Assembly: GCF_001545095.1 (NCBI RefSeq)
Contig: NZ_CP013213.1
Coordinates: 1,560,001 to 1,592,000, forward strand
Length of the DNA: 32,000 bases
Origin: Erysipelothrix larvae
GTDB lineage: Bacteria > Bacillota_I > Bacilli_A > Erysipelotrichales > Erysipelotrichaceae
Direction: 5' to 3'
The first letter of the stretch is position 1, and every line of letters begins with the position of its first letter. The position numbers and the translations under genes were made by a program. Shown here in pieces: positions 3,890-27,515 of this stretch. The notes beneath the pieces are model-generated. The model was not told the origin of the DNA. It did no database searches and saw nothing but the letters and a program-made list of their open reading frames with translations.

Positions 3890-3896
3890 CACCGCC

Positions 3897-9240: not shown

Positions 9241-9268
9241 AGCACTATTGCCCCCCCTGGATAGTGCT
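9241..9268 (-). terminator. Terminator of the DtxR-family regulator gene; the stem overlaps its last codons
   Basis: AGCACTAT/ATAGTGCT stem with a 12-nt loop, A-run (9234-9240) and T-run (9269-9273). On the minus strand the hairpin is followed by a U-run. Confidence 0.6.
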
Positions 9269-9922
9269 TTTTTCATGTGCTTCAACAAAAATCATCAATG
9301 CAAGATTAAAGTTAATATACTTTTGTTCATTTCCTTTACGAAAGAATATAATCCCGTTGATTTGATCAAACTTATCAATCGTGATTTCATCGCCAATGTT
9401 TAGATTCGATTCATGAAGATGATGAATGACATTTTGATTATCTGTGATGCGTTTAATCACAACACTCGCATGCTCTTCATAATCTAAAAGCGTTTTATTT
9501 TGTGTTTCACGATAGTGAGTTGTATTTGGAATAATACCACCATGTGGGCAATTTGCAGGATAGTCAAGGAATTGTTCCAGGCGATCAAAGAACTTATCAC
9601 TTTCAATATGTTCAAGTAACTCCGCATCCCGGTCTACTTCCTCCAAAGAATACCCCAATACACTATAAAGGAAACTTTCTGAAAGTCTGTGTTTACGTAA
9701 CACATCAATTGCAATATCTCGACCCTTCTTTGTCAGCATGGCCCCTTTATAGGCTACATAATCAACCATTCCCTCTTTTTCAAGTTTGTGGAGCATGTCT
9801 GAAACAGACGGTGCGGATACATTGAGTTCTTGTGCGATGCGTTTATTGGAAACATAGGAATCGTAACCATTAAATTCAAATATTATCTTGAGATAATCTT
9901 CTCTTCCTGAAGACGGTTTCAT
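9245..9922 (-). CDS. DtxR/MntR-family metal-dependent transcriptional regulator with a C-terminal FeoA/SH3-like domain (SloR/ScaR/PsaR-like)
   Basis: N-terminal winged HTH 'EDYLKIIFEF...RIAQELNVSAPSVSDMLHKLEKEGMV', a dimerisation/metal-binding domain, and a C-terminal beta domain. It is divergent from a Mn-type ABC importer. Confidence 0.85.
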   Translation of the reverse strand: MKPSSGREDYLKIIFEFNGYDSYVSNKRIAQELNVSAPSVSDMLHKLEKEGMVDYVAYKGAMLTKKGRDIAIDVLRKHRLSESFLYSVLGYSLEEVDRDAELLEHIESDKFFDRLEQFLDYPANCPHGGIIPNTTHYRETQNKTLLDYEEHASVVIKRITDNQNVIHHLHESNLNIGDEITIDKFDQINGIIFFRKGNEQKYINFNLALMIFVEAHEKSTIQGGQ

Positions 9923-10001: not shown

Positions 10002-10030
10002 TTGATACGCGCATAAATTTGTGGTATTGT
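10002..10030 (+). promoter_or_regulatory. Candidate promoter of the metal ABC operon (-35 TTGATA, 17-nt spacer, extended -10 TGGTATTGT)
   Basis: Hexamers at 10002-10007 and 10025-10030, about 25 nt upstream of the RBS/ATG at 10055. Confidence 0.5.
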
Positions 10031-10054
10031 ATGTATGAAAAGGGAGAGATATTT

Positions 10055-10795
10055 ATGATTGACATTAAGAATTTAGAAGTCGATTACTTCGGCAAAATAG
10101 CAATTGAAGGCGTCAATCTCTCCATTCCTTTTGGTTATAGCATTGGTATAATCGGTCCGAATGGAGCAGGTAAAAGCACCTTGATGAAATCGATGTTGGG
10201 TGTCATTGATAAAAAGAGTGGAACGGTCCTCTACAATAACACAGACATAAAACAGAAACTAAGAAAGATTGCTTATGTACCTCAAAAGACAGATGTGGAT
10301 CTAACATTCCCTATCACTGTTTTTGACGCAATACTCACAGGTACTTATCCAAATGTACCCTTATTTAAAAGACCGGGTAAAAAAGAAAGAGACACTGCGA
10401 AACAAGCAATGGATCTTGTGCAAATATCCGACTTAAGAGATAAGCAAATCAGCAATCTATCTGGGGGCCAACTTCAAAGAGTCTTCATCGCACGTGCTTT
10501 AGCACAAAATCCAGATGTATTCTTTCTAGATGAGCCATTTTCAGGGATTGACTTAGTGAGCGAGCAGATCATCATTGATTTACTCAGGGATTTAGAAAAA
10601 GATGGAAAAACGATTCTTGTAGTTCATCATGATTTACATGCAGTTGAGTCATATTTCGATAAATTGATAATACTGAATAAAGAACTAATCGCCTTTGGTG
10701 ATGTCCAAGATGTCTTCACTACAGAAAACATTAAGAAAGCTTATGGACAATCACTGGGAAATATTGAAGTTAAGGGATTGGGGGCAGTGTTATGA
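10055..10795 (+). CDS. Metal (Mn/Fe-type) ABC transporter ATP-binding protein (PsaB/SloA/MntB-like)
   Basis: Walker A GPNGAGKST, signature LSGGQLQR and Walker B VFFLDEP. Start moved to ATG 10055 (MIDIKNLEV...), preceded by AGGGAGAG. The N-terminal extension in the track ORF overlaps the promoter. Confidence 0.9.
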   Translation: MIDIKNLEVDYFGKIAIEGVNLSIPFGYSIGIIGPNGAGKSTLMKSMLGVIDKKSGTVLYNNTDIKQKLRKIAYVPQKTDVDLTFPITVFDAILTGTYPNVPLFKRPGKKERDTAKQAMDLVQISDLRDKQISNLSGGQLQRVFIARALAQNPDVFFLDEPFSGIDLVSEQIIIDLLRDLEKDGKTILVVHHDLHAVESYFDKLIILNKELIAFGDVQDVFTTENIKKAYGQSLGNIEVKGLGAVL

Positions 10796-11628
10796 GTTGG
10801 TTATCGGAAGTGACGAATATGCCAACATTTATGTTGAATGCAGGCGTTGCGTCAATTATCTTAGGTGTTGTTTCTGGGATTATTGGAACCTTTATCATTC
10901 TTAGAAAAATGGCGTTGATGGGTGACGCCCTATCACATGCCGTATTGCCAGGTGTGGCAATTTCATACATGCTTGGAATCAATATGCTCTTTGGTGCATC
11001 ACTGTTTGGATTGCTTGCGGCAGTTCTCATTCAGTTTATCTCTGAAAAAAGTACACTAAAAGGCGATACTTCCATCGGTATTATCTTAAGTACATTCTTT
11101 GCACTGGGCATCATCTTGATATCAAGTGCACAAAGTGGCATCGATTTAAATCATGTCCTCTTTGGAAATATATTAGCGGTCTCAGCACCACAACTTAAAC
11201 AATCATTTTGGGTGATGGTTGCGGTAATTGTGATTGTGTCCCTTTTCTACAAGGAACTCTTAATCAGTACCTTTGATCCTACTGTATCAAAAGCATATGG
11301 TTTAAACACAACGTTTTACCACTACCTCTTGATGCTTATGCTTTCGATTGTGACAGTATCGTCTTTATCACAAGTCGGAATTGTACTTGTTATTGCTATG
11401 TTGGTTATTCCAGCTGCAAGTGCTTATCTTTGGACCAATAAACTGCATCATATGATGATTCTTGCATCCATTGTTGGTGCAATCTCAGGCATTGTTGGAA
11501 CCTTAATAAGCTTTGAATACAATCTTCCAACGAGTGCCACGATTGTCCTTGTCGGTTCAGGCGTATTTTTGATTTCATTTATTTTTTCACCCAAGAACAA
11601 TTTCATAAAGAGAGGAAAAACAGCATGA
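10792..11628 (+). CDS. Metal ABC transporter permease (ABC-3 family; PsaC/MntC-like)
   Basis: 278 aa with about 8 TM helices. Its start overlaps the upstream stop and its stop overlaps the downstream start by 4 nt each. 'GDALSHAVLPGVA' is the ABC-3 family motif. Confidence 0.9.
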   Translation: MSWLSEVTNMPTFMLNAGVASIILGVVSGIIGTFIILRKMALMGDALSHAVLPGVAISYMLGINMLFGASLFGLLAAVLIQFISEKSTLKGDTSIGIILSTFFALGIILISSAQSGIDLNHVLFGNILAVSAPQLKQSFWVMVAVIVIVSLFYKELLISTFDPTVSKAYGLNTTFYHYLLMLMLSIVTVSSLSQVGIVLVIAMLVIPAASAYLWTNKLHHMMILASIVGAISGIVGTLISFEYNLPTSATIVLVGSGVFLISFIFSPKNNFIKRGKTA

Positions 11629-12536
11629 AAAAAATGTTCGCTTTTATGATCGCTACCTTGCTTCTTGTGACCGGGTGTAATTCCCAAACAAGCAAAGTAG
11701 ATGATGGAAAACTTCATATCGTGGCAACCTATTCAATTATTGCGGATATGGTTGAGAACATCACAAAAGATAAAGCAGTTGTAAATAGTATGGTACCAAT
11801 TGGGAGTGATCCACACTCCTATGAACCACTTCCAAGTGATTCACAAAATATATCCGACGCAGATTTAATCTTCTATAACGGATTCAATCTTGAAACAGGT
11901 AAAGGGTGGTTTCAAAACCTCTTGGATACCACAAATAAAAATGATGTTGCCTTTGCGGTAACTGAAAATGTTGAACCAATTCACTTAGCTGAAAAAGGTA
12001 AGGAAACTGAGATTGATCCTCATGCATGGTTGAATGTTAAAAACGGGATTAAATATGTTGAATTGATTGCAGATAAAATTATCGCTGCAGATCCAGACAA
12101 CAAAGCATTCTACGAAACAAATCGTGACGCTTATATCAAGGAACTGAAAGACCTTGATACATACATTCAGGATAAAGTAGATGCAATTCCTGTTGAACAA
12201 CGTATCTTAGTAACCAGTGAAGGTGCGTTTAAGTACTTCTCAAAAGCATATGGGTTTGATGCTCAGTACATTTGGGAAATCAATACCGATAACCAAGGAA
12301 CACCGGATCAAATGAAACGCGTCCTTGATATTATCAATACGAAAGATGTGAAAGCACTTTTCTTGGAAACAAGTATTAATCCTTCAACAATGGAAACAAT
12401 CTCTACGGAGACTGGTGTTCCAATTCATTCGAAGATCTTCACCGACTCATTGGCAGCAAAAGGCAATGATGGTGATACATATATTACAATGATGCAATGG
12501 AATATCAACCATATTGCAGAAGGATTGACGAAATAG
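11625..12536 (+). CDS. Metal ABC transporter substrate-binding lipoprotein (cluster A-I; PsaA/MntA-like, probably Mn)
   Basis: Lipobox LLLVTGC. Candidate ligand contexts are SDPHSYEP (His), IDPHAWLN (His), LVTSEGAF (Glu) and IFTDSLA (Asp), giving His-His-Glu-Asp as in PsaA-type Mn binders. There is no His-rich Zn loop. Confidence 0.85.
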   Translation: MKKMFAFMIATLLLVTGCNSQTSKVDDGKLHIVATYSIIADMVENITKDKAVVNSMVPIGSDPHSYEPLPSDSQNISDADLIFYNGFNLETGKGWFQNLLDTTNKNDVAFAVTENVEPIHLAEKGKETEIDPHAWLNVKNGIKYVELIADKIIAADPDNKAFYETNRDAYIKELKDLDTYIQDKVDAIPVEQRILVTSEGAFKYFSKAYGFDAQYIWEINTDNQGTPDQMKRVLDIINTKDVKALFLETSINPSTMETISTETGVPIHSKIFTDSLAAKGNDGDTYITMMQWNINHIAEGLTK

Positions 12537-12556: not shown

Positions 12557-12587
12557 AAAGGCAGATGGCGCACATCCATCTGCCTTT
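12557..12587 (+). terminator. Terminator of the metal ABC operon
   Basis: AAAGGCAGATGG-(7 nt)-CCATCTGCCTTT, a perfect 12-bp stem 21 nt after the stop. The T tract is weak. Confidence 0.6.
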
Positions 12588-12650: not shown

Positions 12651-13808
12651 TTAGTCTTTGGTATATGCTACGACACCACGACAAATTGTTGTTTGAATGT
12701 TGATGTCTTCATCAGTGATTACGATATCCGCATCTTTACCCACTGCGATGCTTCCCTTGCGTCCAAACACACCCAGTTGTTTCGCAGAGTTTGTAGACGA
12801 CATTTTAATAAGGGATTGCATTGAACAACCTGTGAAGTTCTTTAGGTTTCTAACCACAAAGTCCATCTCAGCAACTGACCCAGCAAGTGATCCTGTGTCG
12901 ATACGACATTCTTTGCCAATCTTCGATACCATTTGTCCACCAAGATCATATTCTCCATCAGGAAGCCCTTTTGCTCTCATCGCATCGGTTATTCCAATGA
13001 TGCCATCTTCTCCTTTAATGGTGAATGTAGCTTTCACTGAATCGGGATGAATGTGAATTCCATCCACAATCATTTCTGCTTTCAATTGTGGGTTCACAAA
13101 TCCAGCAGTTACTGCTCCAGGATTACGGTGATGATGAGGGGTCATTGCATTATGGAAATGGGTAAGATTTGATAGCCCTTCTTTACATGCATCCATAATT
13201 TGTCCATAGTAGGAATCTGTATGTCCTGCAGATGCAACAACGCCTTTTGACGTAATATAATCAATAAATCCAGGTTCTGCTTCTTCGGGTGCAAAGGTAA
13301 TTAATTTAATGCGTCCATCCGATTTTTCCCAATAATGATTAAAGTTTTCACGCGTTGGTTTTTGAATGAATTTTGGATTTTGAGCTCCAACATGTTTTGC
13401 GGAGATGAACGGACCTTCTAGATGCATTCCTAGCATCTCAGCTTCACCTGGTTTATTGTGATGATCCATGTACTCAACAATTGAACTTAATGCAATGTCA
13501 ACGGCTTCTTGAGATTGCGTCATCGTTGTAGGTAGATACGATGTTGTCCCTTCTTTTGGTATAAAATTAACAATCGTATGCAATGCTTCAAGGGTTCCAT
13601 CCATATGATCTGAGCCATAAGCTCCATGAATGTGTTGATCGATAAATCCAGGAATTACAGCATTCCCTTTTGCATCAATGACCTGATCATCATTCAGATC
13701 ACAAAACTCCATGGATCCAAAGCCAACAATTTTGTCGCCGGCAATTCGGACATACCCATTTTCAATCACACGATTTTCTAAATAAACTGTTCCATTAATA
13801 ATTAACAT
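12651..13808 (-). CDS. nagA: N-acetylglucosamine/N-acetylgalactosamine-6-phosphate deacetylase
   Basis: Amidohydrolase fold with 'GFIDQHIHG', 'HLEGPFIS', 'AGHTD' and 'THFHNAM' motifs as in NagA/AgaA. Start set at ATG 13808 (MLIINGTVY...), preceded by GGAGGAAACG. The track ORF is 13 codons longer. Confidence 0.9.
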   Translation of the reverse strand: MLIINGTVYLENRVIENGYVRIAGDKIVGFGSMEFCDLNDDQVIDAKGNAVIPGFIDQHIHGAYGSDHMDGTLEALHTIVNFIPKEGTTSYLPTTMTQSQEAVDIALSSIVEYMDHHNKPGEAEMLGMHLEGPFISAKHVGAQNPKFIQKPTRENFNHYWEKSDGRIKLITFAPEEAEPGFIDYITSKGVVASAGHTDSYYGQIMDACKEGLSNLTHFHNAMTPHHHRNPGAVTAGFVNPQLKAEMIVDGIHIHPDSVKATFTIKGEDGIIGITDAMRAKGLPDGEYDLGGQMVSKIGKECRIDTGSLAGSVAEMDFVVRNLKNFTGCSMQSLIKMSSTNSAKQLGVFGRKGSIAVGKDADIVITDEDINIQTTICRGVVAYTKD

Positions 13809-13974
13809 AACGTTTCCTCCTATGTCTATTATATGCTTTTCTGACACATTTGTGTAAAATGAATTGAGATAATTATTTCATTTTTCAACAATCAAAACTT
13901 AATCCTTGAATTCAATTTGCATTTGATGGTAAATTATGCAAAAATACTAGAGGAATTAATGAAAGAAGGACTGT

Positions 13975-14685
13975 ATGATTAACGTTGTTTTTGATCTTGA
14001 TGACACACTGTACTCGCTCTTACCCGTATTTGAGAAAACACTGCACCTGTTTATGCCTGAGCATACTTTAGATGTTCATGATTTTTATATCGCATTTAGA
14101 GAAGAAGCAAATAAGCTCTTTACGGATAGTCAAACAGGTAAAATCTCCATGGAAACCTTACATCGCTTACGTGCTCAAAATGCATTTAAACGCTATGGGA
14201 TTGTTTTAGATGACCAACAAGCCGATACTTTCCATGCAATCTATGATTCATACAAAGAAAACATAGCCTTGAGTGATGAAGCAATTGACATCATCCACTT
14301 GATGGATCAATATGGATTCAAAACGGGAATTATTACAAACGGAACATCACAAAAACAAAGAAAAACAATGCGATGTTTAGATATCACGCGATACTTTACT
14401 GATGACAATCTTATTATTGTATCTGGAGAACTTGGCATTGACAAACCCGACCATCGCATTTTTGATGCATGGACAGACCGCATTCAAAATACATCCCCTT
14501 CCCTTTATGTTGGTGATTCATTTACACATGATATCATCGGTGCATATCAGGCTGGATGGACACCCATTTGGTATAATCCACTTAACAAACATCACCCTGA
14601 AGTTGATTTTGAATTCATTGAAATCAAGTCACTGAGCGAACTTAAAACACTACCAATCATTACAGATAACGCAAACAGTAAGTAG
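13975..14685 (+). CDS. HAD-superfamily (subfamily IA-like) hydrolase/phosphatase
   Basis: Motif I 'VVFDLDDTLY', motif II 'GIITNG', and a motif III/IV region 'K...YVGDSFTHDIIGA'. The substrate is unknown. Confidence 0.8.
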   Translation: MINVVFDLDDTLYSLLPVFEKTLHLFMPEHTLDVHDFYIAFREEANKLFTDSQTGKISMETLHRLRAQNAFKRYGIVLDDQQADTFHAIYDSYKENIALSDEAIDIIHLMDQYGFKTGIITNGTSQKQRKTMRCLDITRYFTDDNLIIVSGELGIDKPDHRIFDAWTDRIQNTSPSLYVGDSFTHDIIGAYQAGWTPIWYNPLNKHHPEVDFEFIEIKSLSELKTLPIITDNANSK

Positions 14686-14717
14686 CATCTTGCACAAATT
14701 ACTGTTTTTTTTAATCT

Positions 14718-14735
14718 GTTTGTCGAAAAGTACAA
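14718..14735. promoter_or_regulatory. Conserved 'aga box' GTTTGTCGAAAAGTACAA upstream of the AgaZ-family gene
   Basis: 16/18 identical to 18590-18607. Related to the reverse complement of 18561-18578 and to 21863-21878. Lies 68-85 nt upstream of the ATG at 14803. Confidence 0.5.
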
Positions 14736-14802
14736 CCAGGTAACCACCTTCCCTAAATACCTTCATGATTGCGTTTTCTATAATATACATGAGGTGATAT
14801 AA

Positions 14803-16098
14803 ATGAGTGAAAATATACTTTTGAAATTAACGAATAAACACCCTGTCGGTGTCTATTCTGTATGTACGGCAAGCGGTCCTGTCATTAAAGCTTCTTTAGA
14901 ATTCGCGAAAGAAAATGGGTCGATTCTTGTTGTTGAAGCAACTGCAAATCAAGTCAATCAATTTGGGGGTTATACAAACATGACACCTTCAGATTATCGT
15001 GAATTTGTATACGATATTGCACACGACGTTGGTTTTGATCCATCGAGGATTGTATTAGGGGGTGACCACCTTGGTCCTTTGACCTGGACCGATAAAGATG
15101 AGGCTGAAGCCATGGCCCTTGCATCGACACTTGTCTATGAATATGCAAAAGCGGGGTATACAAAAATCCATCTTGATACATCAATGAAAGTTGCATCTGA
15201 TTCAGCATCAGAACCCCTCTCAAATACAATCATTGCACAGCGTTCTTGTGAACTCGCAAAAGCTGCGCTTCGTGGCTATAATGCCCTTAAAGAATCCAAC
15301 CCAGACGCAGTATTCCCTGTATTTATAATTGGCAGTGAAGTACCGATTCCAGGTGGTGCACAAGAAGCGGAAGAATCGCTTGCAGTCACCACTGTTGAAG
15401 ATTTTATGACGACCTACTTAGTATTCAAAGATGTTTATCAGAAAGAAAATATGATGAAAGTCTTCAATCACGTGATCGCGATTGTTGTGCAGCCTGGCGT
15501 CGAATTTGGCGATTCTGATTTGTTTATTTATCAACGCGAAAATGCTAAGAAACTCACTACAGCACTTAAAGAAAACTTTGAAACATTAAATTTTGAAGGC
15601 CACTCCACAGACTACCAAACACCGTCTGCTTTACGTGAAATGGTTGAAGATGGCATTACGATCTTGAAAGTTGGACCGGCTTTAACCTTCGCTTATCGTG
15701 AAGTATTGTTTGCATTATCAGAGATTGAACGGATTCTATTTAGTACCCCTTCACACCTCCCAGATGTACTTGAAAAAGCAATGCTTGATAATCCTAAGAA
15801 TTGGGAAAAGCATTATCATGGAAATACCCATGAGCTTGCATTCAAACGTAAATACAGCTATTCAGATCGTGCACGGTACTATTTACCAGTTCCTGAAGTG
15901 GATACTGCAATTCAAACACTGATTCACAATCTTGAATCGATTGATATTCCTGAAACCTTGTTATCGCAATACCTGCCATATCAATACCGTCATGTAAAGG
16001 ATGGGCTTATTACAAAACATCCCCATGATTTAATCTCCGATTACATTAAGTTGTATTTAGCGGATTATGAATACGCAACACAGAGTGCAAAACTCTAA
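14803..16098 (+). CDS. agaZ: GatZ/KbaZ/AgaZ-family protein (class II tagatose-bisphosphate aldolase non-catalytic subunit / tagatose-6-phosphate 4-epimerase family)
   Basis: Recalled E. coli GatZ blocks are present along the whole length: EATANQVNQFGGYTNMTPSDYREFV, GGDHLGP, KIHLDTSM, GSEVPIPGG, IAIVVQPGVEF, HSTDYQT, ILKVGPALTFA, YSYSDRARYY and SQYLP. Confidence 0.9.
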   Translation: MSENILLKLTNKHPVGVYSVCTASGPVIKASLEFAKENGSILVVEATANQVNQFGGYTNMTPSDYREFVYDIAHDVGFDPSRIVLGGDHLGPLTWTDKDEAEAMALASTLVYEYAKAGYTKIHLDTSMKVASDSASEPLSNTIIAQRSCELAKAALRGYNALKESNPDAVFPVFIIGSEVPIPGGAQEAEESLAVTTVEDFMTTYLVFKDVYQKENMMKVFNHVIAIVVQPGVEFGDSDLFIYQRENAKKLTTALKENFETLNFEGHSTDYQTPSALREMVEDGITILKVGPALTFAYREVLFALSEIERILFSTPSHLPDVLEKAMLDNPKNWEKHYHGNTHELAFKRKYSYSDRARYYLPVPEVDTAIQTLIHNLESIDIPETLLSQYLPYQYRHVKDGLITKHPHDLISDYIKLYLADYEYATQSAKL

Positions 16099-16122
16099 GA
16101 ACAGGATTTCCTGTTCTTTTTT
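16098..16122 (+). terminator. Terminator of the AgaZ-family gene
   Basis: AGAACAGG-ATTT-CCTGTTCT followed by TTTTT, overlapping the stop codon. Confidence 0.75.
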
Positions 16123-16195
16123 ACGAAGAAAAGTGATCATACGAATCGTTTGATTTGATGATCACTTTAATGTTTATTTACCTAGACAGTTGCAC

Positions 16196-16220
16196 AAAAG
16201 AGTCAGACTCTGACTCCTTT
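16196..16220 (-). terminator. Terminator of the PTS IIB-IIC-IID operon
   Basis: GAGTCAG-ACT-CTGACTC stem extended by A/T pairs, with a U-rich tail on the minus strand. Lies 31 nt after the IID stop. Confidence 0.6.
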
Positions 16221-16250
16221 GTTTGCTGGCTAAGCTATAGGAATTTATAT

Positions 16251-17171
16251 TTAATCTGCTGGTGGTGTTGGTAATTCATACCATCTAACAACTGGAGTAT
16301 ATCCGCCAGGAATTGAATTTCCATCAGCGTCAACAACACCAGAGTCACCTGCCCAAATACCAAAGAAGGTACCTACTAGACCGATTACGATAAGTAGTGC
16401 AATACACTTAGTTGGTGTCCAGTTATGTTTCTTAACAAGGAAATAAATCATCATCGTTAAGATTAATGGAATCAATTTAGGAATGACACCATCCAATACT
16501 TCTTGAATGATGATATATTCTCCACCACCTAAATCAACCGCAATTCGTAAGGTTGTACCACCGTAGTTTGATACAAGTGCACCTACGATGAATACCCCAA
16601 GAATACTTGCTGCACGCGTGAATTCTTTTGCATTCTTTGTGAAGACATCAATTGCTTGTGTTCCTAACTCATAGGATTTATGCATGAGTACATAACGCAC
16701 TACGAATTGGACAACATTAAAGATGATTAAGAATAAGAACGGTGCAAACCAATTACCACTAATCGCCATATTTGCAGTAAATCCTGCTGCGATTGGTACT
16801 AATGTTAACCAGAACAATGCATCCCCAATACCACCAAGTGGTCCCATTGCGGCAACACGTACCGCACGGATTGTTGGGATATCAGCTTTTTGTTGTTCAA
16901 GTGATAATACGATCCCCATAATAAAAGTTACTAAGAATGGGTGTGTGTTAAAGAATTCAAGGTTGTGTCCCATTGACGCAGCCAAGTCATCTTTGTCTGT
17001 ATGAATTTTTTCAAGCCCTGGCAAGATGCTGTATAACCATCCAGCTGCTTGCATACGTTCATAGTTAAATGAAGCTTGCAAGAAGCATGAACGCCACACC
17101 ATCTTATTGAGTGTTCGTTTATCCAGCTGTTGTGCAGGCGTTAGATTTTTATATAGATTAGATTCCATCAT
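16251..17171 (-). CDS. PTS mannose/fructose/sorbose-family transporter subunit IID (AgaD-like)
   Basis: Signature 'LEFFNTHPF' and the IID membrane topology. The start is either of the tandem ATGs at 17171/17168, downstream of GGAGGTG; the track start at 17183 is a GTG. Overlaps the end of IIC. Confidence 0.9.
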   Translation of the reverse strand: MMESNLYKNLTPAQQLDKRTLNKMVWRSCFLQASFNYERMQAAGWLYSILPGLEKIHTDKDDLAASMGHNLEFFNTHPFLVTFIMGIVLSLEQQKADIPTIRAVRVAAMGPLGGIGDALFWLTLVPIAAGFTANMAISGNWFAPFLFLIIFNVVQFVVRYVLMHKSYELGTQAIDVFTKNAKEFTRAASILGVFIVGALVSNYGGTTLRIAVDLGGGEYIIIQEVLDGVIPKLIPLILTMMIYFLVKKHNWTPTKCIALLIVIGLVGTFFGIWAGDSGVVDADGNSIPGGYTPVVRWYELPTPPAD

Positions 17172-17958
17172 CGTCACCTCCACCTGATGTTAGATCACGC
17201 ATACGTGTATTGGTTTGGAAATCGTAAATAGCGATTGCTAAACCGATCATTGCAAGAATAAGTAATGCTGGTCCTTGAAGGCTTTTGACTGCTCCAAGAA
17301 TTGTAGCAAATGCAAATCCCATGAAGTAAAATCCCCAGAGTTCTCCAGAAAGCATAATCTTCATTAAAATTGCAAACCCTACATAACGCATCATAACACC
17401 GGCTACTGCAAGTCCTGCCATTACCCAGCTATTATTTGCGGCAAAGTTAATAATTGCATCACTCGATGCAACACCTGCTGCCATCGCTACCATAACAACA
17501 ACACCAAAGAGTGTTCCTAAGATTCCCATACTAATGTAGTTAATCTTAGTAATTCCTTTAACATCAGCTTTTGCAGCATATTGATCTGCTTTAGACATTA
17601 ATGGTGACATAATTGTAAAGGTTGTTGTTACAGCGTATTGTCCTAATAACGCAAATGGAACAGCCATCCCCACAGCTGCAGCAGGTACAGTATTTTGTGC
17701 AATCGCAAAGACGGTTGCCATAATACCACCGATAACAGCATTTGGTGGTTGTGCTCCACCGATTGGCATACTACCAATTGTAATCAATTGATACGTACCA
17801 CCTACGATAAGTCCTGTATTCATATCCCCTAAGATTGCTCCAACAACTGGACCAACTACGATTGGTTGGTAAAGTGATTGGAGAAAGCTGAATTGGTCAA
17901 TCGCAACAATAAATGTAACGATAAACACCAGGATGTATTGCATTACATTAAAACTCAT
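17158..17958 (-). CDS. PTS mannose-family subunit IIC (AgaC-like)
   Basis: 266-aa polytopic protein with Gly/Ala-rich helices typical of EIIC-Man. AAGGAGGA RBS. Confidence 0.9.
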   Translation of the reverse strand: MSFNVMQYILVFIVTFIVAIDQFSFLQSLYQPIVVGPVVGAILGDMNTGLIVGGTYQLITIGSMPIGGAQPPNAVIGGIMATVFAIAQNTVPAAAVGMAVPFALLGQYAVTTTFTIMSPLMSKADQYAAKADVKGITKINYISMGILGTLFGVVVMVAMAAGVASSDAIINFAANNSWVMAGLAVAGVMMRYVGFAILMKIMLSGELWGFYFMGFAFATILGAVKSLQGPALLILAMIGLAIAIYDFQTNTRMRDLTSGGGDDDGI

Positions 17959-17981
17959 GTTTCTTTCCTCCTTATTGCTGA

Positions 17982-18458
17982 TTATTCAAATAATCCGGAT
18001 GTACTTTGTGCTCCTTCAGTTGGAACTTTTCGAATTTCAATCTCAACGCCAAGATCACGTAATTTCTTGAATGCCTCAACATCATTATCATCAACTGCGA
18101 CAACTTGAGATACTTGACGTTTCCCATCTGCCATATGCATGTTTCCAACATTCAATTTCTTGATTGGAACCCCTCCTTCAACAAGTGTCAGTACATCTTG
18201 TGGATTTTCGACAACCAAAAATATTTTTTGCTTGTCGGATGCTTTATGAATCGTATCGATTGTTTTCTGAAGCGACCAATAACGCGTCCCTGCATAACTT
18301 GGTGCGGCCATATCCATAAGTCCTTGGCGCATCGTGTTTGTAGACACCTCATCATTTGCAACTAATATGAGGTTTGCTCCTATTGCAGAACACCATTGCG
18401 TTGCAACTTGTCCATGAATCAATCGGTTATCGATTCGTGTTAAAACTATGTTTGGCAT
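17982..18458 (-). CDS. PTS mannose-family subunit IIB (AgaB-like)
   Basis: 'MPNIVLTRIDNRLIHGQVATQW' contains the phospho-His loop of EIIB-Man. Start set at ATG 18458, preceded by AAAGGAGAG at 6-nt spacing. Confidence 0.9.
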   Translation of the reverse strand: MPNIVLTRIDNRLIHGQVATQWCSAIGANLILVANDEVSTNTMRQGLMDMAAPSYAGTRYWSLQKTIDTIHKASDKQKIFLVVENPQDVLTLVEGGVPIKKLNVGNMHMADGKRQVSQVVAVDDNDVEAFKKLRDLGVEIEIRKVPTEGAQSTSGLFE

Positions 18459-18560
18459 AAACATCTCTCCTTTCACTTAGCCCAATAAGAGAATGAATGC
18501 TCTTACAAATAAATCTTATCAACTATTAGCGCATTTATATTTGCACTTATACACCTTCCG

Positions 18561-18607
18561 TTTGTACTTTTCAGCACAGAGGCATAAACGTTTGTCGAAA
18601 ATAACAA
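18561..18607. promoter_or_regulatory. Two copies of the 'aga box' in the IIB/araC divergent intergenic region: TTTGTACTTTTCAGCACA (18561-18578, inverted orientation) and GTTTGTCGAAAATAACAA (18590-18607)
   Basis: Direct comparison with 14718-14735. Confidence 0.5.
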
Positions 18608-18650
18608 AAACTTTGGCTTTTATGCTAAAATTTGGTTGGAGGTATTCACA

Positions 18651-19841
18651 ATGTACTTAAAAACGACAAGTCCCCAATTCTTGCAATATGGCTTAGTTTC
18701 CGATGCACCATCTGATTTCAGTGTTAAGCGCAACGCCTACGAAGGAAAACAGAGCGATACATTACGGTCAAATTCGCATCCAGTATCATTTCAAGTGATT
18801 GAAGGCATTGCTGTATTAATAATTGAAACACCCGATGCTTCCTTGCATGAATTTGTAATCCATCGAAGGGCAATCCTTGACGCAAACATCCCTTACACAA
18901 TCATCGCACTCACACAAAGTGTGTTGGTTGAAGAGTCGGTTCAAACGGATGCTCCATACCAAGAAATCGTCAAAAAAGCGGGGCGTTTGATTGAACATAA
19001 ACCCATTCAACCCCAATTTTATATTTCCGATATATTTTCATACTATTACAGTGTTAAAGGGCAAAAATATCATTTTGATGGGGAGTCTCATTACTATTGG
19101 GAGATTACCTATGTTGATACAGGAGAGCTCATCATTGAACTTGATGGTATTGAGTACAAACTTAACAACCAAGATCTTATGATTTACCTCCCAGGACAAT
19201 TTCATAAGCAACGCATTGCAGAAAGTAAAACCTGTTCCTATTTCACGATAATGTTTGATATGAATGGCCCGATTGGACTTTTTGATCAGCTTAAAAATCA
19301 AGTCATTCAATGCACTCAGCAGATGTACGCACTCATCAATCAATTCATTCGCCAATCTAATTTACTTGAGACGGATGAATTGCCTTTTACACGCGATTTA
19401 ATGATGTCCTACCTTCAAGAACTAATCATCCTCATGATGCAAAGTAAATCTGATCATGAGTTATTGACCATCACGAATATCAACCCTGCTCAAAATAAAT
19501 TTGAAAATGAAATGGTGGATGAAATCACCAACTACATTCTAAAAGAAATTTACAGTCCTATTACGGTCGAAGATATTTGTGATAATTTTGGAGTCAGCCG
19601 TTCAACCCTTCAATCATTATTTAAAAAACATTTGGGCGTACCACCGAAACAATACATCAATGATATGAAAATGCGAAAAGCACAACAAATCATCCTACAA
19701 GAAAATGTCCCGATTACGGAAGTGTCGTTGCGCCTTGGATTTAGTTCAATCCATTATTTCTCGCGAAAATTTAAAAAAGAATTTGGGTTGTCACCCAGTG
19801 AATTTGCACAATCTGTGTATCAAACAAGTCACGATGCTTAA
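18651..19841 (+). CDS. AraC/XylS-family transcriptional regulator with an N-terminal sensor region that includes a cupin-like module
   Basis: C-terminal double HTH ('ITVEDICDNFGVSRSTLQSLFKKHLGVPPKQYINDMKMRKAQQIL...LGFSSIHYFSRKFKKEFGLSPSEF'). Start at ATG 18651 after GGAGGT; the track start at 18636 is a TTG. Confidence 0.9.
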   Translation: MYLKTTSPQFLQYGLVSDAPSDFSVKRNAYEGKQSDTLRSNSHPVSFQVIEGIAVLIIETPDASLHEFVIHRRAILDANIPYTIIALTQSVLVEESVQTDAPYQEIVKKAGRLIEHKPIQPQFYISDIFSYYYSVKGQKYHFDGESHYYWEITYVDTGELIIELDGIEYKLNNQDLMIYLPGQFHKQRIAESKTCSYFTIMFDMNGPIGLFDQLKNQVIQCTQQMYALINQFIRQSNLLETDELPFTRDLMMSYLQELIILMMQSKSDHELLTITNINPAQNKFENEMVDEITNYILKEIYSPITVEDICDNFGVSRSTLQSLFKKHLGVPPKQYINDMKMRKAQQIILQENVPITEVSLRLGFSSIHYFSRKFKKEFGLSPSEFAQSVYQTSHDA

Positions 19842-19857
19842 TGCGTGACTTGTTTTT
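19824..19857 (+). terminator. Terminator of the AraC-family gene
   Basis: ACAAGTCACG-(10 nt)-CGTGACTTGT followed by TTTT. The 5' arm lies within the last codons. Confidence 0.7.
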
Positions 19858-19867
19858 ATAAAAAAGC

Positions 19868-19883
19868 CAACACGTATGTGTTG
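19868..19883 (-). terminator. Candidate terminator after the yajC-like gene
   Basis: CAACAC-GTAT-GTGTTG, with a U-run on the minus strand (A-run 19861-19865). Confidence 0.45.
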
Positions 19884-19892
19884 ACTCGAGTT

Positions 19893-20180
19893 TTATACAA
19901 TAATATTTGCGATACTGTAAAACGCTACTTCAATTTCAAGATTATTGGCAAGTTTTACTTTCGCAATTGATCCATCTTTATTGGTTCCTTGATAGATGCC
20001 AATTACACCCCCAGCACATAAAATCTTCATGCCTGGTTTCAACTCTTTTTTCAAGGATACTGAACGTTCGTTTGATTTTTTAAGTAAACTTTTGGTTCGA
20101 AACCAATAAAAACATAAAAAGATGATGATAAAAGCGATAACTGTTAAACTTGTATATAGTACGACATGAAAAGGTGTCAT
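19893..20180 (-). CDS. yajC: YajC-like small membrane protein (preprotein translocase subunit YajC family)
   Basis: 95 aa. One N-terminal TM helix, then 'LKPGMKILCAGGVIGIYQG...VKLANNLEIEV', resembling the YajC beta-domain. GGAGGA RBS. Confidence 0.7.
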   Translation of the reverse strand: MTPFHVVLYTSLTVIAFIIIFLCFYWFRTKSLLKKSNERSVSLKKELKPGMKILCAGGVIGIYQGTNKDGSIAKVKLANNLEIEVAFYSIANIIV

Positions 20181-20189
20181 ATGATCCTC

Positions 20190-20627
20190 CTAGATTCCAT
20201 CCTCATCTTCTTCAACATCACGCTTCATGAGGTCTTCTTTATCAAAGCGCGTCACTTGTTGCAACCCTGTTTCAACGAGCTTTTTAGCGAGTTCACCTAC
20301 GTCATCAAACCCACCACGCATCAATGTCCCTTCAAGAAGCATGGCGATGTTTGTTCCAGTAAGAACTTCAACATTCGGCTCATTCATTGCAATCATCACT
20401 GCTTGTTGGAATGGTGTTCCCCCTTTTAAATCCGTGAATACAAGCACCCCTTTGCCTTGATTCACAGTCTTTACTGCCTCAAATAAAGCAGTGTGCAATG
20501 CTTCGTGGCTTGATCCATCCAAGAAATTCACATTCAGATAGTGTTCTTGTTTTCCTGCGATCATTTCTACCGTTGAACTTACACCATCAGCAAATCGATT
20601 ATGTCCTGTTACAATGATTCCAATCAT
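20190..20627 (-). CDS. PTS mannose-family subunit IIA (AgaF-like)
   Basis: 'MIGIIVTGHNRFADG' carries the EIIA-Man phospho-His near residue 9. ATGA overlap with the agaS stop. Confidence 0.9.
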   Translation of the reverse strand: MIGIIVTGHNRFADGVSSTVEMIAGKQEHYLNVNFLDGSSHEALHTALFEAVKTVNQGKGVLVFTDLKGGTPFQQAVMIAMNEPNVEVLTGTNIAMLLEGTLMRGGFDDVGELAKKLVETGLQQVTRFDKEDLMKRDVEEDEDGI

Positions 20628-21802
20628 ACTTTTCCCCTTTCTGTATCAAATGGATACAATGTTACCCCTTGTACAACGCGATTAACCATTCCGGATGGCC
20701 ATGGATTATCCGGTGATTTCCCTAAAGAAACAGAACGGAGTAATCCAATCATTTGCGCAACAATAATGTAGCAAAGACCGATTAAATCTTTAGTAGTGGC
20801 TTCTACATGAATGGCAAAGTATTCATCAACAAGCACTTCAATATCACGGTCTTGTTTACAATCAATCGCAATCAATTGATTGCCATCTCTTTGACTGCTT
20901 ATTTCTTTGATGATATCAATTTGGTATTGACGAGTGTAGGGATCATCCGATAGGTAAATAACTGTTAGTGTCTCTTGATTCAAGATACTTTTTGGCCCAT
21001 GTCTAAATCCAAGTGGTGAATTAAACATCGATACCACTTCCCCTGCGGTGAGTTCTAAAATCTTCAGTGCAGACTCTTGGGCTATTCCATTAAGACTTCC
21101 ATCGCCTAAGTAGACAATTCGCTTGAAATCAAATGTATCGACAACACGTTGTGCAATTGGAAAGAAATCATTCAATATATGATGTGCTGCATCTTGTAAT
21201 GAAGCAATATCAAATTGATTGATAATTCCCTTATCTAAATTAAAACACAAATAAGCGGCTAATAACATATTTGTAAATGAACTTGTCATTGCAAAAGATA
21301 AATCATTAGTTTCATCCGGTAATATGATGGATGCATAGTGTTCCCCTTTACGCAGCGCTAATGCACCGTCTTTGTTACACGTAATAATCAAATGTTTGGT
21401 GTTTTTATTGATTGCATTAGCAACATCAATTGCACCAATTGATTCTGGAGAATTGCCTGAACGTCCAAACGAAACAACTAATGTTGGTTGATTTTCACGG
21501 ATATAGTATTCTGGAGTTGCCACTAAATCAGTAGAGGCTATCGATACAAAATGATCGTTTCCAGCCTTTTGAAATAGTGGTACGAGTGCATTTCCAACAA
21601 ATTCACTGGTCCCAGCACCTGAAAATATAATTTTGTAATGGTCTTGTTTTGTGATTGATTCAATAAACGCTTGAATTTCTTGATATTGATGCTTTATGAT
21701 TCCAACAGTCTTTGCCCATGTTTCTGGCTGTTGTGAAATTTCTTGAGCTGTATTTATGCCCATAACGTGTGTCCAATCGTCTTTTGATTTATTTAGTATC
21801 AT
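20624..21802 (-). CDS. agaS: SIS-domain sugar isomerase/deaminase, AgaS family (galactosamine-6-phosphate deaminase/isomerase)
   Basis: Recalled E. coli AgaS blocks are present: GAGTSEFVG, FGRSGNSPES, FAMTSSFTNM, RIVYLGDGSL, ESALKILELTAG, GFRHGPKS, PYTRQY and NRVVQGV. Start set at ATG 21802 (MILNKSKDDW...) after AGAGGTG. The track ORF has 26 extra N-terminal codons. Confidence 0.9.
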   Translation of the reverse strand: MILNKSKDDWTHVMGINTAQEISQQPETWAKTVGIIKHQYQEIQAFIESITKQDHYKIIFSGAGTSEFVGNALVPLFQKAGNDHFVSIASTDLVATPEYYIRENQPTLVVSFGRSGNSPESIGAIDVANAINKNTKHLIITCNKDGALALRKGEHYASIILPDETNDLSFAMTSSFTNMLLAAYLCFNLDKGIINQFDIASLQDAAHHILNDFFPIAQRVVDTFDFKRIVYLGDGSLNGIAQESALKILELTAGEVVSMFNSPLGFRHGPKSILNQETLTVIYLSDDPYTRQYQIDIIKEISSQRDGNQLIAIDCKQDRDIEVLVDEYFAIHVEATTKDLIGLCYIIVAQMIGLLRSVSLGKSPDNPWPSGMVNRVVQGVTLYPFDTERGKV

Positions 21803-24043: not shown

Positions 24044-24898
24044 TTATTTTTTTGACTCATCGTGTGAACCCTTTAGTTTCATGACTTGATGTAGGTGAAT
24101 GGTTAGGTACATTTTTTCATCGGCATTGAGACTATAATTGTATTCCTTCTCACAATACTTGGCAATTGTATCAACACATCGATTGAACTTGAGAATACTT
24201 GCGCGAATTTGTTTGATAAAACTATCGCTTGTCTCAAGGGTTTGAGGTGTATTACTATGAAAAATATTATGGGCAAGATATTTTAAATGGGTAATTAAAC
24301 GTCGATGACTCAGACTGTTTGTTTCAATGGTGACATTTAACTCTGAAGCGATGATTGTCATCACATCGTTTAAAAATTTGACGGATTTATTCGCATAATA
24401 TTTCTCGCTGGATGACGATGCGTTTACGATATGAATTGTGAAATAGGTTGCCTCTTCTTCTGGAAGTCGAATGCCAATTTTTCGTTCGATATAATCAAGC
24501 GCCCACAGTCCAATTTCATATGCTTCAGGGAAAAATAACTGCATATCATTTGATATACTTGGCATTGTGATTCCTTGATGTACCCGCTCAATCGCATAGG
24601 CAATGTGATCGGTAAGACTGATATTAATTTTGTCATCGATTGTTTCATTAAGTTGTGTTGCGGCGTATTCTGCAATATCACGGGTTATTTCAAAATACAG
24701 TACAGGATACTGTTCAAGCATTTTTTCAAATGCAGCCATGTTGTCATCAAAAATCACAAATGACTTCTCAATCTTTTGAGCATCAATTGTCTCTCCTGCC
24801 TTCATATGAAAGCCAACACCAGGTCCAGTTACAATGGTTTCTTTCCCATCCATCACAGTTTGGACACAATTGTTGTTGAAGATTTTACGAATTATCAT
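24044..24898 (-). CDS. BglG/LicT/GlcT-family PRD-containing transcription antiterminator
   Basis: N-terminal CAT RNA-binding domain 'MIIRKIFNNNCVQTVMDGKETIVTGPGVGF', followed by two PRD modules with conserved His contexts (LTDHIAYAIER, HIVNA, LITHLKYLAHN, LTIHL). Start at ATG 24898 after GGGAGGGG. Confidence 0.9.
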   Translation of the reverse strand: MIIRKIFNNNCVQTVMDGKETIVTGPGVGFHMKAGETIDAQKIEKSFVIFDDNMAAFEKMLEQYPVLYFEITRDIAEYAATQLNETIDDKINISLTDHIAYAIERVHQGITMPSISNDMQLFFPEAYEIGLWALDYIERKIGIRLPEEEATYFTIHIVNASSSSEKYYANKSVKFLNDVMTIIASELNVTIETNSLSHRRLITHLKYLAHNIFHSNTPQTLETSDSFIKQIRASILKFNRCVDTIAKYCEKEYNYSLNADEKMYLTIHLHQVMKLKGSHDESKK

Positions 24899-25048
24899 CG
24901 AACCCCTCCCCCAATAATACACGTCTATTTTAATCGATTTATATGCTTTACTTATTCAATTTATTATATCGTAGAAATCGTTGATTTCATAGGATGCAAA
25001 TTTTTATTATAATCAAATTCACTGCATTTGTATGGGTATAAAATAAAC

Positions 25049-25087
25049 AACATGCAAGCAATCTATCCGATAGACCCCTTGCATGTT
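25049..25087 (-). terminator. Terminator between the PTS EIICB gene and the antiterminator gene
   Basis: AACATGCAAG-(19 nt)-CTTGCATGTT, a perfect 10-bp stem 16 nt after the EIICB stop, with a U-rich tail on the minus strand. Confidence 0.65.
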
Positions 25088-25102
25088 ATTCCATCATTTA
25101 TC

Positions 25103-26548: not shown

Positions 26549-26578
26549 AAGTCTCCTCCTTCTTCTTGGATAGGCATG

Positions 26579-26601
26579 AAAAAAAAGGCAAGTTCTACAA
26601 A
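26579..26601 (-). terminator. Orphaned 3' arm and U-tract of the RAT-controlled leader terminator (partner arm at 29156-29170)
   Basis: The minus strand reads TTTGTAGAACTTGCC followed by 8 U, ending 30 nt before the EIICB ATG. It is complementary at 13/15 positions to GGCAAGACCTACAAA, which lies next to the RAT on the other side of the IS. Confidence 0.65.
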
Positions 26602-26618
26602 CAAAACAGCATCACTGT

Positions 26619-26626
26619 ACTATTTG
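26619..26626. repeat. Target-site duplication ACTATTTG (left copy)
   Basis: Identical 8-mer at 29152-29159, directly abutting both IS ends. 8 bp is the usual ISL3-family duplication length. Confidence 0.7.
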
Positions 26627-26648
26627 GGATATTAAACTTTACTTGGGG
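26627..26648. repeat. IS left terminal inverted repeat GGATATTAAACTTTACTTGGGG
   Basis: Compared base by base with the reverse complement of 29130-29151. Confidence 0.6.
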
Positions 26649-26758
26649 TTTTCACTCGCAACACTATTTCTTGGGGTGAGGTAATCTTGCTCTAGCCTCT
26701 GTCTTTAAAGAAGTTTGGGGATTTCTGTTGTAAACTGATTATCTTAGACCAGCAGAAT

Positions 26759-26813
26759 AAAAAATCACTTTACTTTATGCACAATTAAGTGCTGTATTAA
26801 AGTGATTTTTTTT
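26759..26813. terminator. Strong bidirectional terminator-like hairpin inside the IS left arm
   Basis: AAAAAATCACTTTA ... TAAAGTGATTTTTT (up to 14 bp) with an inner GCAC-AATTAA-GTGC stem. A-run on the 5' side and T-run on the 3' side. Confidence 0.6.
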
Positions 26814-26911
26814 GTATTATTAGTTTAACGAGGTTAATAAAATGGTAGAAACCCCAAGTTTCCAGACCTAAGTTTCTACCAATCCAATACCTCCTATAAA
26901 GGAGTAAGAAT

Positions 26912-27382: not shown

Positions 27383-27515
27383 GAAAAATAGTTTTAACTC
27401 CTCAGATTGAATATAATGAAGATGGTTATTTAAATAACAGACAATCATTTTTATATTTAGGAGCAAGATACATAATGAAACCTTATCAAAATAGTCAAAG
27501 AGAGGCAGGGTTTCT

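Follow-up and report, generated by a model that had tools for sequence, protein, structure and literature searches.

The sequence analyzed here is a stretch of 32,000 nucleotides from Erysipelothrix larvae (NCBI RefSeq assembly GCF_001545095.1, contig NZ_CP013213.1, positions 1,560,001 to 1,592,000 of the forward strand), called the window below; all positions are counted within it unless a locus is named. Between 12,651 and 21,802 it carries a gene island that resembles the N-acetylgalactosamine (GalNAc) and galactosamine (GalN) pathways of other bacteria. The island encodes a mannose-family phosphotransferase system (PTS), a deacetylase, an AgaS-type deaminase/isomerase and AgaZ, a protein of the GatZ/KbaZ family whose role is the main subject of this work. 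The genes are as follows:

12651-13808, minus strand: nagA/agaA, GalNAc-6-phosphate (N-acetylglucosamine-6-phosphate) deacetylase; likely start ATG 13808 with the ribosome-binding site (RBS) AGGAGG, longest open reading frame (ORF) from GTG 13847; monocistronic
13975-14685, plus strand: HAD-IA hydrolase, YjjG/YfnB-like (Pfam Hydrolase and HAD_2)
14803-16098, plus strand: agaZ homolog, GatZ/KbaZ family, 431 amino acids (PF08013 over the full length, 540.4 bits)
16251-17183, minus strand: mannose-family PTS IID, AgaE-like (PF03613, 317 bits; NF040760 AgaE, 294, below its cutoff of 500)
17158-17958, minus strand: mannose-family PTS IIC, AgaW-like (PF03609, 212 bits; NF040757 AgaW, 214, below its cutoff of 300)
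17982-18458, minus strand: PTS IIB, AgaV-like, first gene of the IIB-IIC-IID operon; likely start ATG 18458, giving 158 amino acids as in relatives, longest ORF to 18476
18651-19841, plus strand: AraC-family regulator; likely start ATG 18651, giving 396 amino acids, longest ORF from 18636
19893-20180, minus strand: YajC-like small membrane protein (PF02699, 31.6 bits), last gene of the agaS-IIA-yajC operon
20190-20627, minus strand: PTS IIA, AgaF-like (NF040761 AgaF, 144.3, above its cutoff of 130)
20624-21802, minus strand: agaS family, with SIS domains; likely start ATG 21802 with the RBS AAAGAGGTG, longest ORF to 21880

An earlier reading of the same DNA, referred to here as the original prediction, had listed these ten genes (IIA, IIB, IIC, IID, NagA/AgaA, AgaS, AgaZ, HAD, YajC-like and AraC), and all of them were found where it had placed them. 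The starts of nagA, IIB, araC and agaS were refined by reading the intergenic regions, each having a good RBS and yielding a protein of the same length as in relatives. By its RBS, position 21802, which had been given as the end of the island, is the likely true start of agaS. NagA exceeded the cutoff of TIGR00221 (344.7 bits against 225.65) and also matched Amidohydro_1, and its gene adjoins agaS or agaZ in many related loci. All four mannose-family Pfam families were found in the PTS; the AgaW and AgaE models were the best-scoring ones for their subunits yet stayed below cutoff, and IIB passed two models, NF008508 for GalNAc IIB (215 against 180) and the model for GalN IIB (198.7 against 180). 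AgaS scored 401.7 with TIGR02815 (agaS_fam), below the cutoff of 529.2, and shows 38% identity to E. coli AgaS across 372 amino acids. This family is by far the best SIS match of the protein, with 401 bits compared to 108 for GlmD. The AraC-family regulator combines a cupin-type ligand domain with an HTH_18 DNA-binding domain (matches to HTH_18, HTH_AraC and AraC_binding). A regulator gene is kept at the araC position in 20 related loci (cluster 5), and the YajC-like gene is kept in 15 (cluster 11).

The genes form five separate transcription units: agaS-IIA-yajC, araC, IIB-IIC-IID, agaZ and nagA. As read from the sequence, agaZ is monocistronic, with the terminator AGAACAGGAtttCCTGTTCTTTTTT directly 3' of its stop codon, and a hairpin (ACAGTAA...TTACTGT) followed by eight T residues lies between the HAD gene and agaZ at 14674-14712. 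The agaS-IIA-yajC operon is closed by a terminator at 19887-19864, and a terminator-like hairpin also ends the IIB-IIC-IID operon. An operator-like motif occurs at three places:

14718-14735, plus strand: 18-mer GTTTGTCGAAAAGTACAA, 68-85 nucleotides 5' of the agaZ ATG
18562-18581: inverted copy in the divergent IIB/araC promoter region
18590-18607: direct copy GTTTGTCGAAAATAACAA in the same promoter region

With up to three mismatches allowed, the 18-mer has two matches in the window, compared to 0.04 expected by chance, and no further match was found elsewhere in its 32 kb. The direct copy at IIB/araC differs from the agaZ 18-mer by two mismatches (motif families D16 and I8). Downstream of the agaZ copy is a TATAAT box (14779-14784) with a poor -35 element. 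In E. rhusiopathiae and E. tonsillarum, agaZ has the exact 12-mer CGAAAAGTACAA at an equal offset on its 5' side, and the 12-mer core, at up to two mismatches, has about 10 times the density in the target intergenic regions that it has over the whole loci. The shared motif supports a predicted co-regulation of agaZ with the PTS. The AraC-family protein, which is probably a pathway-specific regulator and an activator, plausibly binds this candidate site. For agaS and nagA, the upstream sequence yielded no convincing copy, so that it is synteny that places these two genes in the regulon. By analogy to known systems, the island can be regarded as a real and widely conserved regulon for GalNAc/GalN utilization, probably under AraC-family control.

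The pathway that we propose for the island is as follows. The mannose-family PTS would take up and phosphorylate GalNAc to GalNAc-6-phosphate, NagA/AgaA would deacetylate this to GalN-6-phosphate, and AgaS would convert the latter to D-tagatose-6-phosphate (Tag-6-P) by deamination and isomerization. The lone AgaZ would then act as a metal-dependent D-tagatose-6-phosphate 4-epimerase and yield fructose-6-phosphate (Fru-6-P), in an EC 5.1.3.40-type reaction of retro-aldol and aldol steps on an aldolase-like TIM barrel. Fru-6-P could enter glycolysis through PfkA and Fba or be used in biosynthesis, and neither a tagatose-6-phosphate kinase nor a tagatose-bisphosphate aldolase would be needed. We consider this conversion of Tag-6-P to Fru-6-P the best explanation of the locus and a probable one. 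The original prediction had described such a route as proceeding without use of ATP. This does not hold for the overall balance since Fru-6-P must still be phosphorylated by phosphofructokinase and cleaved by fructose-bisphosphate aldolase. What the epimerase route would do is dispense with the tagatose-specific enzymes and deliver the carbon at a branch-point metabolite.

The first line of evidence is the protein itself. Residues 8-427 of AgaZ align to positions 7-420 of the 420 positions of the PF08013 profile. E. coli GatZ and KbaZ share 43.5% and 44.6% identity with AgaZ, and the TagE ortholog of S. meliloti shares 43.3% (over 420 amino acids). Its top match in the PDB is 3txv (339 bits), which is the S. 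meliloti TagE ortholog itself, and 2fiq, E. coli GatZ, is matched as well. The family has been predicted to form an aldolase-like TIM barrel with conserved metal-binding His residues and a catalytic Asp (PMC1079889), and the active site proposed for GatZ has an Asp base and a Zn held by His, Glu and His (PMC11907403). The reference set of proposed catalytic residues in GatZ numbering is Cys20, Glu44, Asp87, His88, Glu171, His257 and Lys279 (PMC11907403); all seven are kept in AgaZ as C21, E45, D88, H89, E179, H267 and K289 and are invariant in an alignment of 15 sequences. The original prediction had stated that stand-alone GatZ-family proteins act as Tag-6-P 4-epimerases, which is correct for A. 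tumefaciens Atu3167 and S. meliloti TagE (PMC11907403, PMC9720028). A study of 2025 showed that GatZ and KbaZ of E. coli also epimerize Fru-6-P and Tag-6-P in vivo (PMC11907403).

The second line of evidence is the missing aldolase. Pfam scans of every window ORF of at least 80 amino acids found no member of the PfkA, PfkB/LacC, F_bP_aldolase or DeoC/LacD families in the 32 kb. When KbaY, GatY and FbaB of E. coli and a sugar kinase of the PfkB type were compared with the window by tblastn, no match was better than E = 0.4. Both searches bear out the original prediction that a kinase and an aldolase are missing from the window. Its argument from this absence stands for the aldolase, which is informative. 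It does not stand for the kinase because the E. coli aga cluster also has no dedicated kinase (PMC9720028). We infer that a tagatose-bisphosphate aldolase is missing from the rest of the source genome as well; the aldolase survey covers the window and related loci.

This survey comprised 93 AgaZ-family loci, numbered with the prefix L where they are named below: the window, two from E. coli, one from S. meliloti, 80 species-representative genome contigs and nine further loci. The presence of a KbaY/GatY-like class II aldolase within 5 kb was as follows:

All loci: 18 of 93 with an aldolase
GalNAc-type loci, in which AgaS is present: 7 of 33 with an aldolase (E. coli included), 26 without
Erysipelothrix-type clade of the window: 0 of 11 with an aldolase

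None of the 11 loci in the clade of the window has a tagatose-bisphosphate aldolase or kinase within about 10 kb. The core of the island, namely AgaZ, IIB-IIC-IID, AraC, (YajC)-IIA-AgaS and sometimes NagA, is present in all 11. Synteny of this core extends to E. rhusiopathiae, E. tonsillarum, E. urinaevulpis, Erysipelothrix sp. HDW6C, several metagenome-assembled genomes and the closest metagenomic relatives, while the genes that flank it differ at every such locus. The AraC-linked layout reaches into Lachnospiraceae, Oscillospiraceae and other Erysipelotrichales. When the neighboring ORFs were all clustered de novo and the cluster representatives searched with Pfam, no LacC/LacD-type or other substitute aldolase was found. 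The single class II aldolase seen in the clade (L009) is 38% identical to KbaY and lies beside pfl-like genes, as annotated by eye; it looks like a housekeeping gene. The adjacent KbaY-like aldolases in the seven GalNAc-type loci are of 46-57% identity.

Small variations of the core were seen among the close relatives. In E. rhusiopathiae (L001, CP152290; 11338-13287, 17080-18018), a gene for an InlK_D3-domain surface protein lies between agaZ and IID, and in one strain a transposase gene that carries an integrase-core (rve) domain is inserted between araC and IIA. The YajC-like gene is absent from E. rhusiopathiae and present in E. tonsillarum.

The strongest new evidence for the epimerase reading is a lactose operon with its own AgaZ. 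E. urinaevulpis has a second AgaZ paralog, 57% identical to the window's AgaZ and with all catalytic residues kept. It is encoded in an operon (L096:4700-12159) in the order LacR, LacF, LacE, phospho-beta-galactosidase (lacG), LacA, LacB, AgaZ and then an EamA-family gene. The start of agaZ overlaps the stop codon of lacB, and the two are translationally coupled. LacAB converts galactose-6-phosphate to Tag-6-P, and LacC and LacD follow in the textbook operon. Within 10 kb of the E. urinaevulpis operon, neither lacC nor lacD was found; a lone agaZ apparently occupies their usual place and, as judged from this gene order, would replace the second half of the tagatose-6-phosphate pathway. A similar lacG-lacA-lacB...agaZ neighborhood, together with a Cof-type HAD gene, was found in an unrelated Bacillota genome (L020:6644-12202). 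A metagenome scan with the lac-linked paralog returned a single 4 kb contig with uninformative flanks. In one genus, two distinct modules that produce Tag-6-P, through AgaS and through LacAB, are each accompanied by a lone AgaZ, which is expected if AgaZ alone disposes of Tag-6-P.

Several findings weigh against the epimerase route. AgaZ scored below the cutoff of the NCBIfam equivalog TIGR02810, the non-catalytic subunit of tagatose-bisphosphate aldolase (490.7 against 568.8), and also below those of the KbaZ model (443.9 against 707) and the GatZ model (411.1 against 579). With AgaS also below its cutoff, the transfer of function by orthology is therefore approximate. For GatZ and KbaZ of E. 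coli, epimerase activity has been described as low (PMC11907403). The active-site residues would permit epimerase activity in AgaZ, but they are kept across the family, E. coli GatZ and KbaZ included, and so do not discriminate; we had considered the set as a means to tell epimerases from helper subunits and rejected it because every family member checked has it. Phylogenetic placement was rejected as a test between epimerase and chaperone: in a neighbor-joining tree built from 85 members of the family, S. meliloti TagE groups with GatZ and KbaZ of E. coli, and AgaZ is equidistant from all three at 43-45% identity. The topology of the tree tracks taxonomy and not function, and aldolase adjacency is scattered over it. 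The window's AgaZ falls in an Erysipelothrix clade. Its nearest relatives are metagenomic proteins of 66-74% identity, followed by those of named Erysipelothrix species at 63-66%. Closely related AgaZ proteins in other Firmicute GalNAc loci (L049, L082 and L085) have an adjacent KbaY-like aldolase; the sister locus L069 has none. The patchy adjacency between sister AgaZ proteins means that both routes exist in Firmicutes, and the adjacent aldolase looks like an optional addition. Lastly, the absence of a kinase and an aldolase covers the 32 kb of the window, and a lacD-, gatY- or kbaY-type aldolase acting in trans is conceivable. The epimerase shunt of the original prediction is upheld as the best-supported reading by the residues, the clade-wide lone AgaZ and the lacAB-linked paralog, but it gains nothing from phylogeny and has to accommodate the GalNAc-type loci that do have a KbaY-like aldolase.

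The explanation that competes best is the classical route in trans, in which PfkA (or FruK/PfkB) serves as the kinase, a distant KbaY/GatY/LacD-type or housekeeping Fba enzyme serves as the aldolase and AgaZ is a non-catalytic subunit that stabilizes or activates it. This is the implicit reading of the published Erysipelotrichaceae reconstructions, which score gatZ-kbaZ as the aldolase and pfkA/fruK as the kinase (PMC8063399, PMC11462708, bioRxiv 10.1101/2020.07.16.206219). In E. coli, GatZ and KbaZ are needed for GatY and KbaY to be fully active, and PfkA is the Tag-6-P kinase, so that the absence of a kinase from the locus is normal (PMC9720028). Genes for PfkA or FruK and for Fba were also found in GalNAc-using pig strains (PMC8063399; bioRxiv 10.1101/2020.07.16.206219). 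Together with the KbaY-like neighbors in 7 of 33 GalNAc-type loci, some of them close relatives of lone AgaZ, and an aldolase search of the source genome that spans the 32 kb window, these facts keep the classical route in consideration. On the other hand, the 11 loci of the clade all lack a partner aldolase in the vicinity of agaZ, the enzyme of L009 having the look of a housekeeping gene, and a helper protein without a partner in two Tag-6-P-producing operons of one genus is hard to rationalize. To our knowledge, no interaction of a GatZ-family protein with housekeeping Fba has been described. Class II fructose-bisphosphate aldolases are also said to discriminate strongly against tagatose-1,6-bisphosphate, reportedly in work by Zgiby et al. 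in 2000 and Hall et al. in 2002. In the GalNAc-using pig Erysipelotrichaceae isolates, the aldolase-type KEGG orthology entries are fba (K01624), deoC and gatZ-kbaZ, with gatY-kbaY, lacD and lacC unlisted (PMC8063399 Table S7); this argues against the classical route, but the table is a curated list and not a full genome inventory and, thus, the support it lends to the epimerase route is weak. Overall, we judge the classical route to be unlikely for the window.

Another explanation is that the island serves a different amino sugar or a glycated substrate, that AgaS does not make Tag-6-P and that AgaZ acts on something else, for example a different ketose phosphate epimerized at C4. AgaS, IIC and IID all scored below their NCBIfam cutoffs, the regulator is of the AraC type and not AgaR, and the specificity of a PTS is unreadable from sequence. 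However, IIA and IIB passed the AgaF/AgaV equivalog cutoffs, and no other SIS family comes near agaS_fam as a match for AgaS. In isolates of pig Erysipelotrichaceae, the same combination of NagA, AgaS, AgaZ and an Aga-type PTS is induced by GalNAc and supports the stimulation of growth (PMC8063399, PMC11462708, bioRxiv 10.1101/2020.07.16.206219), and the lacAB-agaZ operon independently links the AgaZ family to Tag-6-P. Taken together, these points make a different substrate quite improbable. That AgaZ is itself a tagatose-6-phosphate kinase, a 1996 prediction that lives on in SEED-type annotations, in the PDB titles of 2fiq and 3txv ("(putative) tagatose 6-phosphate kinase") and in some reviews (PMC12118421, PMC4694137), is effectively refuted and hardly credible: kinase activity of AgaZ/GatZ was undetectable in published assays and the family was dropped from the kinase classification (PMC1079889), none of the families matched here (PF08013; NCBIfam agaZ/gatZ, KbaZ and GatZ) is a kinase, and the product, tagatose-1,6-bisphosphate, would still require the missing aldolase.

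One gene counted as part of the island by the original prediction, the HAD-IA hydrolase gene, proved not to be a conserved member. It scored 123.8 with TIGR02254 (YjjG family), below the cutoff of 159.9, and no HAD-IA gene was found at this position in E. rhusiopathiae, E. tonsillarum, strain HDW6C or the relatives of 66-74% identity. We rejected it as an integral enzyme of the pathway based on this lack of synteny and on the hairpin and T-run that precede agaZ; it is probably a peripheral gene and a separate transcription unit. A non-homologous, Cof-type (HAD-IIB, Hydrolase_3) phosphatase gene was found directly beside agaZ in six different loci:

L098:9560-10489, Cof-type HAD phosphatase
L099:8144-8947, Cof-type HAD phosphatase
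L020:11387-12202, Cof-type HAD phosphatase
L047:4255-5037, Cof-type HAD phosphatase
L073:4627-5445, Cof-type HAD phosphatase
L082:8162-8938, Cof-type HAD phosphatase

It is speculation on our part that this recurrent phosphatase is an overflow or relief valve for sugar phosphates.

Members of the AgaZ family were also found in two other kinds of neighborhood. In many loci of Lachnospiraceae and Clostridia (L014, L017, L031, L050, L068 and others), AgaZ occurs with an FGGY kinase, a GatD-like Zn-dehydrogenase, an aldo-keto reductase, RbsD/FucU and an ABC transporter. Thirteen of the 19 polyol-type loci have no adjacent aldolase. By analogy, they look like a Firmicute version of the routes for hexitols and tagatose in Agrobacterium/Sinorhizobium, in which a Tag-6-P epimerase is the last enzyme. 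In about 10 genomes (L027, L037, L039, L041, L053 and L074-L078), AgaZ lies beside an IspD/TarI-type cytidylyltransferase, with an adjacent Zn-dependent dehydrogenase in nine. Frequent neighbors are a glycerophosphotransferase of the TagF type and a multi-pass membrane protein with no annotation (family representatives were confirmed with Pfam). This cassette looks like a route from Fru-6-P to Tag-6-P, a hexitol phosphate and a CDP-hexitol for a teichoic-acid-like polymer, and a role as an aldolase helper makes no sense for AgaZ in such a setting.

A broader proposal can be made, more tentatively and with somewhat less than even confidence. In many Firmicutes (Erysipelotrichaceae, Lachnospiraceae and others), the GatZ/KbaZ family may, instead of helping an aldolase, be the sole general exit for Tag-6-P, a bypass by C4 epimerization replacing LacC/LacD or PfkA/KbaY in the catabolism of GalNAc (AgaS-linked), lactose/galactose-6-phosphate (LacAB-linked) and hexitols (linked to Zn-dependent alcohol dehydrogenase and FGGY kinase). 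The reverse reaction, from Fru-6-P to Tag-6-P, might then be used in the IspD/TarI-type cassettes.

The remaining genes of the window look unrelated to the island. They include a LacI regulator, BacA, an OYE reductase, a GGDEF protein, an SDR and a glycosyltransferase, and the following modules:

2939-3892, minus strand: phosphodiester glycosidase (NAGPA domain)
3897-4721, minus strand: trypsin-like serine protease, adjoining the glycosidase
9245-9922, minus strand: DtxR/MntR-type repressor with a FeoA domain
10019-12536, plus strand: three-gene ABC-3/ZnuA-type metal uptake operon, divergent from the repressor
12557-12587: strong bidirectional terminator between the metal operon and nagA
24044-24922, minus strand: BglG-type antiterminator
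25103-26548, minus strand: glucose/glucoside-family PTS EIICB
26912-28991, plus strand: DUF6431 protein and ISL3-family transposase

The glycosidase and protease pair (2939-4721) may be surface or secreted enzymes that act on host glycoconjugates. The metal uptake operon abuts the island. The antiterminator and EIICB genes, bordered by the DUF6431 and transposase genes, form a second sugar-uptake module beside a mobile element (24044-28991).

If the epimerase route is true, the GalNAc pathway of the island is complete without a tagatose-specific kinase or aldolase, and GalNAc carbon enters at Fru-6-P, from which it can supply glycolysis, the pentose-phosphate pathway and the synthesis of cell-wall amino sugars. 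GalNAc use by Erysipelotrichaceae is the proposed mechanism of the effect of host ABO genotype on the gut microbiome, and the published reconstructions count GatZ/KbaZ as "the aldolase", a role not known for that protein. Scoring of the KEGG/SEED type, with K16371 taken as an aldolase subunit or "Tag-6-P kinase", would then mispredict which gut bacteria use GalNAc, lactose and galactitol. The lacAB-agaZ operon suggests that the same bypass takes the place of LacCD in some Gram-positives. If the broader proposal of a general exit were also true, both the textbook tagatose-6-phosphate pathway and the ABO-linked GalNAc pathway would need to be redrawn. The GatZ/KbaZ family also has a practical side, the production of tagatose from glucose, for which natural high-flux epimerases of catabolic operons would be useful. 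The enzyme activity was already known, as was the gene set in Erysipelotrichaceae; the use of this activity in GalNAc or lactose catabolism appears to be undescribed, since no proposal of an epimerase exit for either was found in the literature searched.

Among known systems, the E. coli aga/kba cluster (agaR-kbaZ-agaVWEFA-agaS-kbaY-agaBCDI) shares with the window a mannose-family PTS, a deacetylase, AgaS and a GatZ/KbaZ protein, and it also has no dedicated Tag-6-P kinase. In contrast, KbaY, the DeoR-type AgaR and AgaI with a second GalN PTS belong to E. coli, whereas the AraC regulator, the division into several units and the YajC-like gene belong to the window. A tblastn panel that included E. 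coli AgaR (GntR reference sequences were not part of it) found no DeoR-type AgaR in the window. The Firmicute lacABCD pathway has the Tag-6-P intermediate in common with the proposed route, but lacC and lacD occur neither in the window nor in the related loci. For Lactobacillus casei and streptococci, it is thought that LacC and LacD act in trans on the Tag-6-P that derives from GalNAc (PMC4694137). The pig-gut Erysipelotrichaceae strains 4-8-110 and 4-15-1 have the same set of genes (agaFVWE, nagA, agaS and gatZ-kbaZ), with growth stimulation and induction by GalNAc (PMC8063399, PMC11462708, bioRxiv 10.1101/2020.07.16.206219). The papers on these strains omit an epimerase route, and the organism of the window is of a different lineage, its AgaZ being about 65% identical to those of named Erysipelothrix species. 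Similar in the fate of Tag-6-P are S. meliloti tagABCDE and the galactitol-altritol pathway of A. tumefaciens C58, where, as in the window, a lone GatZ-family protein with the same predicted active site follows a Tag-6-P-producing step and the locus has no aldolase; the S. meliloti locus consists of an ABC transporter, a sugar kinase, a GatZ-like gene and LacI. In these Proteobacteria, Tag-6-P comes from tagatose or galactitol imported by ABC transporters and is made through the sugar kinase, whereas in the Firmicute studied here it would come from an amino sugar taken up by the PTS and converted by AgaS, as we propose from the sequence.

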